This document shows positions 3,001 to 6,000 of a DNA stretch of 47,066 nucleotides, piece by piece (within the stretch, counting starts at the first letter, position 1; each line of letters begins with the position of its first letter). The DNA is from a phage. The stretch is taken from the sequence record OZ365185.1. One strand, given 5' to 3'. The position numbers were made by a program.

Positions 3001-6000
3001 CCTTTCTCTCCTTTCGGACCGGGAACACCACCTCCTGCTGCAGCCTCTTCTGCCTTTGTTTTCGCTTCATTTGCCACATCCATTGCCGCCTTCACGGCCT
3101 TCGGCGTGGCTGCCTTTGTTTCGTCATTACTGCCAGTATCACTGCTTAACTGCACCACACCTTTCTGCGTCGTGCTGGCATCCCGCTGGCTGACCGTATC
3201 CGGTTTGTTCTTTGTGCTGTAATCCACCCGCCAGTGGAAATACTGTGTGTCGCCGTAAACCGTACAGGTACAGACCGTGCCATTAATAAACCCCGTTGCA
3301 CCGTATTCGCCAATGGTGACCCGGACTATGGCAGCCTCATACGTTCCCATCACCTCAATGGCGCAGCCACCCAGATTAAGTTTTCCCGGCCCGACATCCG
3401 TGATGACTTTATTGAGTACCGCAGGCAGTGATGCCTTCATCATCCAGTAAGGCTGGTCAAATGCCCCTTTTTCTTTCAGCCAGGCAACAAACTCGCTCGT
3501 GGTCCATTCACCGGCCCCCGTATGAATGTCCCGCCCGTATACTCTGGCTGCTCCCACGGTGTTCAGAAACTTCACCTTATCCGGGATATCGTCACCGTTT
3601 TTCGCTTTCTCCAGGCATCCGTCCGCTTTGTCCATTGCCGCTTTCACCGCTTTCGGGGTGGCTGCCTTCGTTTCATCATCACTGTCCGTTGCGCTGCTTA
3701 ACTGCACAATTCCCTTCTGTGCCGTCGTCGCATCCGGTCCGCCCGGCTCGCCTTTTTCGCCCTTCTCTCCCCGTTCACCTTTCACACCCTGAAGCCCCTG
3801 CGGCCCCCTCTCACCACGCTCACCCTTTGGCCCACGCTCACCGGTATCGCCTTTTGGCCCGGGAATACCCTGTGGCCCGGTGTCTCCCTTATCCCCCTTC
3901 GGTCCCCGCGCATTCTCTGCCCGTTTCTTCGCTTCCTCTGCACTCGCCGCTGACGCTTCCGCACGTTTCAGGATTTCCGCTGCCACCGCTTCCAGCTCTG
4001 CAAGGGCTTTCGGGTAATACTGTGCGTCTTCCAGGTCCATCAGAAATTTATTCAGCGTTCCCGGTGCAGAATCCGCCTTCACCAGAATGTCACCCACATA
4101 TGACGGCGCGTACCCTTCCGTGTTCAGCGTCACCCGGTACAGACCCGGCTCAACATCCATACTGTAACTGCCGGTTTCCCCCGGCTGACCATACGCCACC
4201 GTGGTGACAATCACCGTCTCCGTTGTACGGCGCGCTTTCAGCTCTATCGTGCATCCCGGTACCGGCTTACCGGCCCCGTCCTTCAGCACACCCGATATTC
4301 TGACTGTCATGGATTTCCCCCATAAAAAAACCGCAGTACCGGTTTCCCGGCCTGCGGTAAAATTTGTGGTTTGTTGGTGTTAAAACGGTGCCATCCGGCT
4401 GACCACCCTCAGCTACCGGTCGGCGGGGGATATTCTCCCCCGCCACGGTTTCTTACTGCTTACACTGTAAGAACGCCGCAATCTCCGCGCCCGCTATCCG
4501 GAACCGGAACTCGCACAGTGAACTGTGGGTGATCCAGATAATGAGCACTACCGTGATACACATCACGGTGGTTTTTAACGGTTTTTGCGACATAACGCTT
4601 GCTCCTTTTACGGAGAGGCGCTAACCTTTCACTTGCTTAGGATGAATGGTCAGGCCTCGGGTTAAACATGAATGTTTTGTCCGGGGCCTTTTCACATCCG
4701 GCCTTCAGGTGTTCCCTCCGGCCATCAGCCAAAGGCACCCGCGCATACTGTACGGTTTTTGTCTCCTTCCGGCAATCCCGGGGCGCGATGTTCAGCGGAT
4801 GCTGATCCCCGCGCTGTTTTTCTTCACCACTATCGCCTGAAGGTTACTGATTCGTGAACTGCCCCAACTGTTATTCTGACGCCGTGAGCTCACGGTAAAA
4901 CTCAGGGTGATATGACCACCGCCAGCTGGCATATCGATGATCCCGCTGAAAATTCCCGGCTCTGTCACTGACCTGCCTGAATAAATCCGGCGTCCATTCT
5001 GATCAACATGCAGGAAGCACTCTGTCCAGATGTCATTACTGGTGCGGGATTCCTGTTTTGACCCGACATAGATTATCGGCGGGATTATAATCTGCCGGTC
5101 AAAGCTGTGATCGTCATACACCGTCAGCGTTCGTGTACCGTTCGCAAGGTAACTACCATCCACCGGAAAAGCCACCCCTGCACATTTCACAAGATCACCA
5201 ATAATGTTCTCCGCTTTCAGCGTGCCATTTATCGTGCAGTTCTCCGCTATCACGACATTATTGAGCGTGCCCGAGTTCGCACTGATATGTCCGCTGATGT
5301 CCGCATTGCGGGCCGTCAGCCTGCCCTCCGGCGTCAGGGAGAACGTCGGGGGATTGCCGGACGAGGTGATGCTCACTGCAAACAGTCGCTTCAGGAACAC
5401 GTCGTTCATAAACAGCTGATTCCCCTGCGCCACAAACAGCGGCGTGGTGTTGCCGTTCTCCGGGTTAATCATCGCGATACGGTCCGCCTGCAGCAGAATA
5501 TTGCTCAGGGGCTGGCCATCAGCATCCTCAATCCCCGCACCTATACCGGCAACATACGGAATGCCGTTTTTCGTTTTCTGCACCTTCAGCATGTACAGCG
5601 CAGCCAGGTCGTTATTTGTGTCTGTCTGCACCCGCTGTATCTGCTGTATGGTGGCACTCTGGTCTTCCAGGGTTTTACTGACCGTCTGTGTGATTTCATT
5701 GCGGGTTTCTGTGATGGTGGTCTTCATCTCTGCCATCTCATCATCAAGCTGGCTGTTATCAATCAGCTCCCACATCCCCTGTGCCAGATGTGTCTTCCCG
5801 ATTTCTCCTCTGAAAAAGTCCAGATACCCTTCCGCATCATTGCTCGCCCGGCCACTGGCTTCCACAAACGCAGATTTCCCCACCAGGTTGACGCTGCGCA
5901 CATAAAACCAGAAATCCTTCCCCGGCCTGATGTGCGGGCCGGAGACGCTCCACTGGCTGCCGGTACCCAGATAACGGGCTGAGGTTTCCACCTGTGCCGT

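Follow-up and report, generated by a model that had tools for sequence, protein, structure and literature searches.

We find that the 47,066-nucleotide (nt) stretch of phage DNA in sequence record OZ365185.1 (hereafter the window) very probably carries a self-contained type I toxin-antitoxin module of the hok/sok type, lodged as an accessory gene ('moron') between J and the side tail-fibre gene of the Shiga toxin 2d (Stx2d) phage 1720a-02. Over positions 4300..4900, the window shows 100% identity to Escherichia phage 1720a-02 (KF030445.1; subtract 1 from record coordinates to obtain window coordinates), the lambdoid Stx2d(act) phage of the Citrobacter rodentium mouse model for enterohaemorrhagic E. 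coli disease. The toxin open reading frame (ORF) is flanked by J (4792..8310) and a collagen-repeat tail-fibre gene (2583..4310), and all three lie on the minus strand. An original prediction, made from the sequence alone, had placed an unannotated hok-family toxin at this site, in the lom position of a toxin-converting phage, and had judged the region upstream of it long enough for a mok frame and a sok promoter. The observation itself is confirmed, and so are the position and the nature of the phage (an Stx2 phage, this copy being engineered); the interpretation is partly supported, being right in kind and wrong on 'unannotated' and on mok. In the lambda gene order, lom occupies the slot between J and stf, and the related copy of the module in 933W-type phages follows lom.

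The 46-codon ORF at 4453..4593 (-) begins with ATG and encodes the peptide MSQKPLKTTVMCITVVLIIWITHSSLCEFRFRIAGAEIAAFLQCKQ, a member of the Hok/Gef family whose nearest relatives are HokA-like peptides. First, the Pfam model HOK_GEF (PF01848) matches it with an E-value of 1.5e-10 and 40.9 bits, exceeding the gathering score of 22, with peptide residues 10-44 aligned to positions 8-42 of the 42-position profile. Second, the peptide has the Hok/Gef architecture, with 46 amino acids (aa), one N-terminal transmembrane helix as its single hydrophobic stretch (highest 15-residue Kyte-Doolittle mean 2.34, residues 8-22) and a C-terminal part containing SLCEF (residues 25-29); the motifs LCEFRFR and EIAAF, on which the original prediction had relied together with the helix, are both there. 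Third, the K-12 HokA, HokB and HokC sequences used as queries match solely this ORF within the window (E = 3e-8, 3e-6 and 2e-5, respectively), where no second hok was found with them, and the aligned identities are 39% (HokA), 35% (HokB) and 33% (HokC). The peptide and HokA have in common M-x-Q-K, the C-x-T of the helix, the SLCE motif and AAFL-x-C-K. Lastly, Cys27 and Cys44 align with the HokA cysteines, so that both are hard-coded; in HokB, a disulfide bond between the equivalent residues is essential for toxicity. The NCBIfam Hok subfamily and HokA models give E-values of about 6e-9, yet the scores lie far under the curated cut-offs (35.8 against 89 bits for the HokA equivalog NF007290), which on sequence places the peptide in a separate 46-aa subfamily rather than with HokA itself.

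Relatives were collected by BLAST of the module against E. coli genomes, which returned several clades at 74-97% identity, and by scanning IMG/VR and species-representative genomes with a DNA pattern built on the most conserved block. Together these gave 80 distinct related sequences, nearly all with an intact 46-aa ORF (a few with 47-48 aa). Five peptide types occur among them, and K4, W20, H23, C27-E28 and AAFLQCK are common to all. Of 138 redundant loci, 90 have the module immediately behind ogr, at the end of P2-like prophages; in 16 it directly follows the J C-terminus (with a tail-fibre gene next in 15 of them), in 11 it follows lom in 933W-like phages, and in the remainder it lies elsewhere. 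The 46-aa hok module is therefore a recurrent phage accessory gene. Two IMG/VR contigs carry tandem diverged modules 460-720 nt apart (L034 at 4430..4455 and 5154..5179; L111 at about 5655 and 6113). The pattern scan of species-representative genomes returned four loci only, two of them in Firmicutes assemblies: L015 (Planococcaceae metagenome-assembled genome DEQA01000038.1) and L017 (Vagococcus sp. NZ_JBQPOM010000071.1) are E. coli-type hok modules whose peptides equal the P2 type, and likely represent contamination or mis-binned enterobacterial prophage DNA.

The region around the ORF is predicted to yield an mRNA (Table 1) with a hok-type leader, a conserved 5'-3' fold-back and a hok ribosome-binding site held in a conserved hairpin. 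Run at a relaxed threshold, the Rfam model RF01794 ('sok') matches 4582..4740 (-) with 51.1 bits and E = 1.9e-10. Despite its name, RF01794 describes the sense-strand leader of hok mRNA, because our K-12 controls hokC (118 bits) and hokB (110 bits) match on the hok strand, with the annotated sokC on the opposite strand. The leader of relative L007, which is 95% identical, reaches 63.5 bits and is thus above the cut-off. The candidate hok promoter agrees with the consensus at 8 of 12 positions and would start transcription at G4740, 7 nt past the -10; hexamers of the form TTGCC and TA..(A/T)T are retained at this site in relatives. At the other end, the loop of the predicted hok terminator exceeds 8 nt, and for that reason a terminator scan missed it.

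Folding supports a structured transcript. The minimum free energy (MFE) of the 417-nt RNA is -185.3 kcal/mol (z = -7.6 versus shuffles), and nt 2-21 pair with 4386-4408, a 5'-3' fold-back of the tac/fbi type as the original prediction had anticipated; the duplex itself is worth -36.1 kcal/mol (z -4.8). In the thermodynamic prediction for a 3'-truncated RNA, the 5' end switches to pairing with AAAAGGCCCC (nt 49-58), and the leader adopts a new fold. For conservation, we used 42 representatives below 97.5% pairwise identity to one another and 66-96% identical to the window in nucleotides. The 5'-3' duplex is predicted in 42 of 42 (-27 to -36 kcal/mol, z -3.2 to -5.9, mean z -4.2 against shuffled 3' segments), with 3' arms that differ (GGUCAGCCGGAUGGCACC, UCAGCCGAUAUGGCACCC, AAGGUCGAUAAGGCACCC, GGUCGAAAGUCGCACCC) opposite a nearly invariant 5' arm, which is why all changes in this pairing are one-sided. 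The MFE structure of the window is paired in 79.5% of cells across relatives, compared with 39-47% when partners are slid by 1-3 columns. Among individual helices, 99.7% of cells are paired in the one linking the hok start region with the AAF codons; the figure is 96.3% across the 42 sequences for the Shine-Dalgarno (SD) hairpin (helix 8), with one-sided G-C/G-U changes only, and 93.2% for the post-stop hairpin (helix 17), with four pairs changed on both sides. RNAalifold run on the relatives recovers the same 5' helix as the 3'-truncated fold, kept in 42 of 42. The post-stop hairpin is also a perfect palindrome with a T-rich tract on the plus strand only (ACGGTTTCTT) and scores as a plus-strand terminator; it could stop antisense transcription coming into hok from the tail-fibre side.

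By prediction, the opposite strand can encode an RNA of about 60 nt with a terminator hairpin at its 3' end. The fold of 4628..4700 (+) has a free energy of -28.8 kcal/mol (z -4.4), and each of 22 distinct Sok variants, folded singly, forms a 3' hairpin followed by a U-run. The inner stem of this hairpin is clade-specific (GUUAAACAU/AUGUUUUGU, GGUUAAC/GUUGACU and UUGAAC/GUUUAA); RNAalifold on a MAFFT alignment of the Sok candidates found a weak consensus only, because the three hairpin types are misaligned. The putative sok hexamers TTGCTC and TAACCT are invariant in 10 BLAST-found relatives and conserved in the listed variants. They align with the sok promoter of plasmid R1, which we take to be TTGCGC, 17 nt and TATCCT. 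For the suggested plus-strand sok upstream of the toxin, a Sok-like RNA with a terminator hairpin is thus predictable within 4594..4700; at the promoter the case is weaker, as the scan was empty and the candidate has a match of 6/12.

Table 1. Features of the hok module and its immediate surroundings (window coordinates)
Feature	Position	Strand	Details
Candidate hok promoter	4747..4775	-	-35 TTGCCG (4775-4770), 17-nt spacer, -10 TACAGT (4752-4747); read from sequence
Predicted full-length hok mRNA	4324..4740	-	About 417 nt; Rfam leader model begins at 4740
5' element (tac-like)	4719..4740	-	Predicted to pair with the 3' element, or with AAAGGCCCC (~4683-4692) after removal of the 3' end
24-codon leader ORF	4621..4695	-	GUG 4695 to UAG 4621; in the hok frame; ends 27 nt before the hok AUG
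SD hairpin	4594..4623	-	Encloses the hok Shine-Dalgarno AAGGAG (4602-4607); reaches the base before the start codon
hok-family toxin gene	4453..4593	-	Pfam HOK_GEF, HokA/B/C alignment, hydropathy; ORF intact in nearly all 80 distinct related loci
G+C-rich post-stop hairpin	4422..4444	-	Directly after the hok stop codon; helix 17
3' fold-back element (fbi-like)	4386..4408	-	GGUGGUCAGCCGGAUGGCACC; duplex with the mRNA 5' end
Terminator-like stem	4324..4357	-	CCGCAG...CUGCGG then U7; read from sequence and folded; 14 nt before the tail-fibre ATG (4310)
Candidate sok promoter	4599..4627	+	-35 TTGCTC (4599-4604), 17-nt spacer, -10 TAACCT (4622-4627); read from sequence
Predicted Sok-like RNA	4633..4692	+	About 60 nt; 5' region of ~20 nt, hairpin 4652-4688, UUUU 4689-4692; ends predicted

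No mok frame overlapping hok was found. In the window, no ORF with a canonical start runs into hok in any frame across the hok start, each frame either lacking such a start or being closed, and the same holds for 52 of 76 distinct relatives. In none of the 76 is there a canonical start 4-12 nt past the conserved GAGG, the position of the mok start in hokC. The +2 frame is open across hok in the window, without an upstream start codon, and closed in the relatives. By this reading, the canonical three-gene hok/sok/mok architecture is absent. The leader instead contains a short ORF in the hok frame, whose UAG contributes the first base pairs at the foot of the SD hairpin; because of this placement, a ribosome terminating there could open the hairpin. 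The ORF is unconserved: the closest relatives L007 and L087 lack its start, and the frames and end points of leader ORFs vary by clade (-78, -56, -43, -35, -28, +83 and +134). It is possible that it acts as a non-conserved, mok-like coupling ORF. We dropped the idea that the invariant UAG at 4621-4623 is a conserved leader-ORF stop, since its conservation is better accounted for by the putative sok -10 (TAACCT) and by the foot of the SD hairpin. For specialists in type I toxin-antitoxin systems, the missing recognisable mok poses a small mechanistic question. One tentative answer, which we consider rather unlikely in its entirety, is that the 46-aa subfamily is naturally mok-less: Sok, acting 40-100 nt upstream, would control hok through the leader ORF, at which termination would melt the SD hairpin, or through mRNA decay alone; in lambdoid phages, late-operon read-through from J would override sok, and depolarisation by Hok would time holin triggering.

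By analogy with R1 hok/sok, we propose that the full-length hok mRNA would be translationally inert, and that removal of its 3' end would let the 5' end re-pair with AAAGGCCCC and reshape the leader. A short-lived Sok-like RNA would bind the leader between -40 and -100, counted from the hok AUG, so as to block or destroy the mRNA; were the supply of Sok to collapse, Hok would be made and would depolarise the inner membrane. Without mok, any coupling might run through the leader ORF at 4695..4621, or else Sok may act chiefly via mRNA decay. In a lysogen, the module would thus be kept silent by both the fold-back and the antisense RNA. From the stop codon of J (4792) to the candidate hok promoter, the scan detected no terminator-like site, and hok points the same way as the late genes, so that late read-through is expected: Q-antiterminated transcription would read through the module and collide with sok transcription, giving Hok late in induction, where its membrane depolarisation could advance holin triggering. 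On this basis, and by analogy with hokW-sokW of Sp5, for which it has been shown, our leading guess is that the module fires at prophage induction and hastens lysis. Superinfecting-phage exclusion and lysogen addiction are plausible other roles; R1 hok/sok is reported to exclude T4 (as cited in PMC8621323).

Several points weigh against a complete and regulated hok/sok-type module. The sigma-70 promoter scan of 4200..4950 found none, and the hexamers read by eye match the consensus only in part for both hok (8/12) and sok (6/12), both being missed by the scan. The hok-type leader of about 150 nt upstream of hok scores below the RF01794 gathering score (51.1 against 59 bits). As far as the sequence can be read, mok, a defining part of the R1 mechanism that is needed there for hok translation, is absent. 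As for conservation, the DNA pattern forces the conserved -10/SD block in most relatives, and covariation support is modest, since most helices vary one-sidedly and the structure tested was derived from one aligned sequence. Finally, the role as a lysis helper is borrowed from a different locus, that of the 51-aa, hokC-like HokW.

Three other explanations were weighed against the self-contained module. The best of them, which we consider improbable, is that hok is a toxin-only late gene, its product aiding lysis as part of the late operon and the Sok-like RNA being functionless or not made at all. It would account for the co-orientation with the late tail genes without a terminator after J, for a sok promoter candidate so weak (6/12) that the scan missed it, and for the lack of a mok on which Sok could act. 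However, the locus has promoter-like hexamers and a terminator of its own, the antisense hairpin and U-run are kept despite change in the inner stem, an elaborate fold-back that would silence the full-length mRNA is conserved, and the same module is also met where there is no late operon, both behind ogr at the ends of P2-like prophages and in islands. A second explanation, to which we assign a very low probability, is that the locus is a decayed and inactive relic, carried without function like those chromosomal hok loci of K-12 that do not kill. In its favour are reports that hokA, hokB and hokC on the chromosome are inactive, the lack of mok and the leader score under the Rfam cut-off; yet clades with 66-96% nucleotide identity preserve the length of the ORF, its key residues and the regulatory structure, neither an insertion sequence nor a frameshift is present at the locus, and the 44/46-identical, 933W-type and P2-type peptides are toxic on expression. 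That a short ORF resembles Hok by chance has a vanishingly small probability and is already refuted: at 46 codons it does fall under common ORF-calling cut-offs, but the Pfam match (E = 1.5e-10) is accompanied by flanking RNA that matches the hok leader model (E = 1.9e-10), and dozens of distinct related loci keep the ORF intact.

The self-contained hok/sok-type module of the window shares with R1 hok/sok/mok and K-12 hokA-E the peptide family, a long 5' leader, a 5'-3' fold-back, a hok SD held in a hairpin and, as a candidate, an antisense RNA encoded in cis within the leader, these RNA features being predictions in the window. It differs in having no mok overlapping hok, in peptide length (46 versus 49-52 aa) and in a leader score of 51 bits against 110-118 for hokB and hokC. 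HokA is the closest K-12 peptide (MPQK..W..SLCE..AAFLACK), and both cysteines are encoded there as in the window peptide. A nearer relative is the 46-aa hok locus of 933W/Sp5-type phages, likewise a moron in the tail-fibre region, with about 78% nucleotide identity over the whole module, 63% peptide identity and the same leader, fold-back and Sok-like hairpin. This locus sits after lom in short-tailed 933W-like phages, whereas that of the window lies directly after J; unlike the window, it has no terminator after the 3' element, and one extra base gives it a better sok -35 (TTGACT) with an 18-nt spacer.

We rejected the identification of this 78%-identical locus with hokW-sokW of Sakai prophage 5 (Sp5), as the published primers encode MKQQKAM... 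with a hokC-like leader and map about 13 kb away; in VT2-Sakai (AP000363.1), hokW-sokW lies at 57.8 kb and the 46-aa homologue at 44.5-44.9 kb. Experiments by Takada et al. (2021, PMC8621323) showed that HokW is toxic, that sokW neutralises it and that, once mitomycin C is given, the locus helps cells to lyse and release phage. The hokW-sokW locus resembles the window module as a prophage-borne hok/sok type I system in an Stx2 phage, and differs in that HokW is 51 aa and hokC-like and not an orthologue of the window gene. The 933W/Sp5-type Stx phages (AP000363.1; L003) thus carry two unrelated hok loci, hokW-sokW and, after lom, the HokA-like locus of 46 aa. The second is called 'MokW-like host killing' in some records and hypothetical in others, which invites confusion with hokW-sokW; for this second locus we found no study at the level of Sok or within a phage, only the overexpression test of its peptide (72_1589).

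With respect to annotation, the exact ORF is labelled as hypothetical protein AGR48336.1 in KF030445, and in RefSeq E. coli genomes the NCBI Prokaryotic Genome Annotation Pipeline (PGAP) names the identical ORF, between gpJ and the prophage tail-fibre gene, 'Hok/Gef family protein' (WP_000078857.1), a name under which the exact peptide appears on 482 contigs. Of 5,426 complete E. coli genomes, 112 contain a stretch that covers 80% or more of window 4300..4900 (J end, hok and tail-fibre start). The gene can thus not be called unannotated. Nor does the implied novelty survive: Escalera-Maurer et al. (bioRxiv 10.1101/2025.08.07.668861) catalogued 44,248 Hok homologues with four-fold prophage enrichment and tested 45 peptides, of which 42 were toxic and 3 non-toxic. 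Their Table S2 lists 79_1563 (MSQKPLKTTVICITVVLIIWITHSSLCEFRFRIAGAEIAAFLQCKR) from the high-abundance cluster 79, 44/46 identical to the window peptide (M11I, Q46R); the RefSeq entry WP_000078857.1 is identical to the protein of the window. Peptides 79_1563, 72_1589 (933W-type) and 72_1621 (P2-type) all belong to the tested set, and the three peptides without toxicity do not include any of them. The survey covered the coding sequence only, explicitly setting aside mok, Sok and mRNA structure. The window module is therefore an ordinary, known kind of phage accessory gene whose protein, subfamily, toxicity and prophage enrichment are already known, and it carries little weight as a discovery, the identical protein being already named Hok/Gef in RefSeq. 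Its practical value is modest: neither the KF030445 record nor the papers checked on phage 1720a-02 mention hok, so both are silent on a membrane-toxin module inside the tail gene block, which could influence lysis timing and hence Stx release.

KF030445 also contains a 59-aa GTG ORF at window 4267..4446 (-), hypothetical protein AGR48335.1, lying wholly over the hok 3' untranslated region and the tail-fibre start and overlapping the post-stop hairpin, the fold-back element and the terminator. It is probably a spurious gene call, because PGAP does not make it in identical prophages.

Elsewhere in the window, a chloramphenicol acetyltransferase gene (about 23979..24638) lies in the lysis region, and an aminoglycoside 3'-phosphotransferase gene (28830..29624) interrupts stx2A. 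The window therefore represents a laboratory-marked, engineered derivative and not a wild-type genome; a marked phage with Rz::cat and stx2A::kan is described in PMC6328086. Rfam matches at 37694..37781 and 37806..37882 (-) to C4 antisense RNA (82 bits) and isrK (59 bits), beside a putative antirepressor gene, suggest a P1/P7-like immunity element of the c4/ant type inside a lambdoid Stx phage. Downstream of the stx region, the small RNA STnc100 is matched over its full length at 28425..28637 (-) with 142.7 bits, and three tRNA genes lie upstream of stx2 at 30055..30303 (-).

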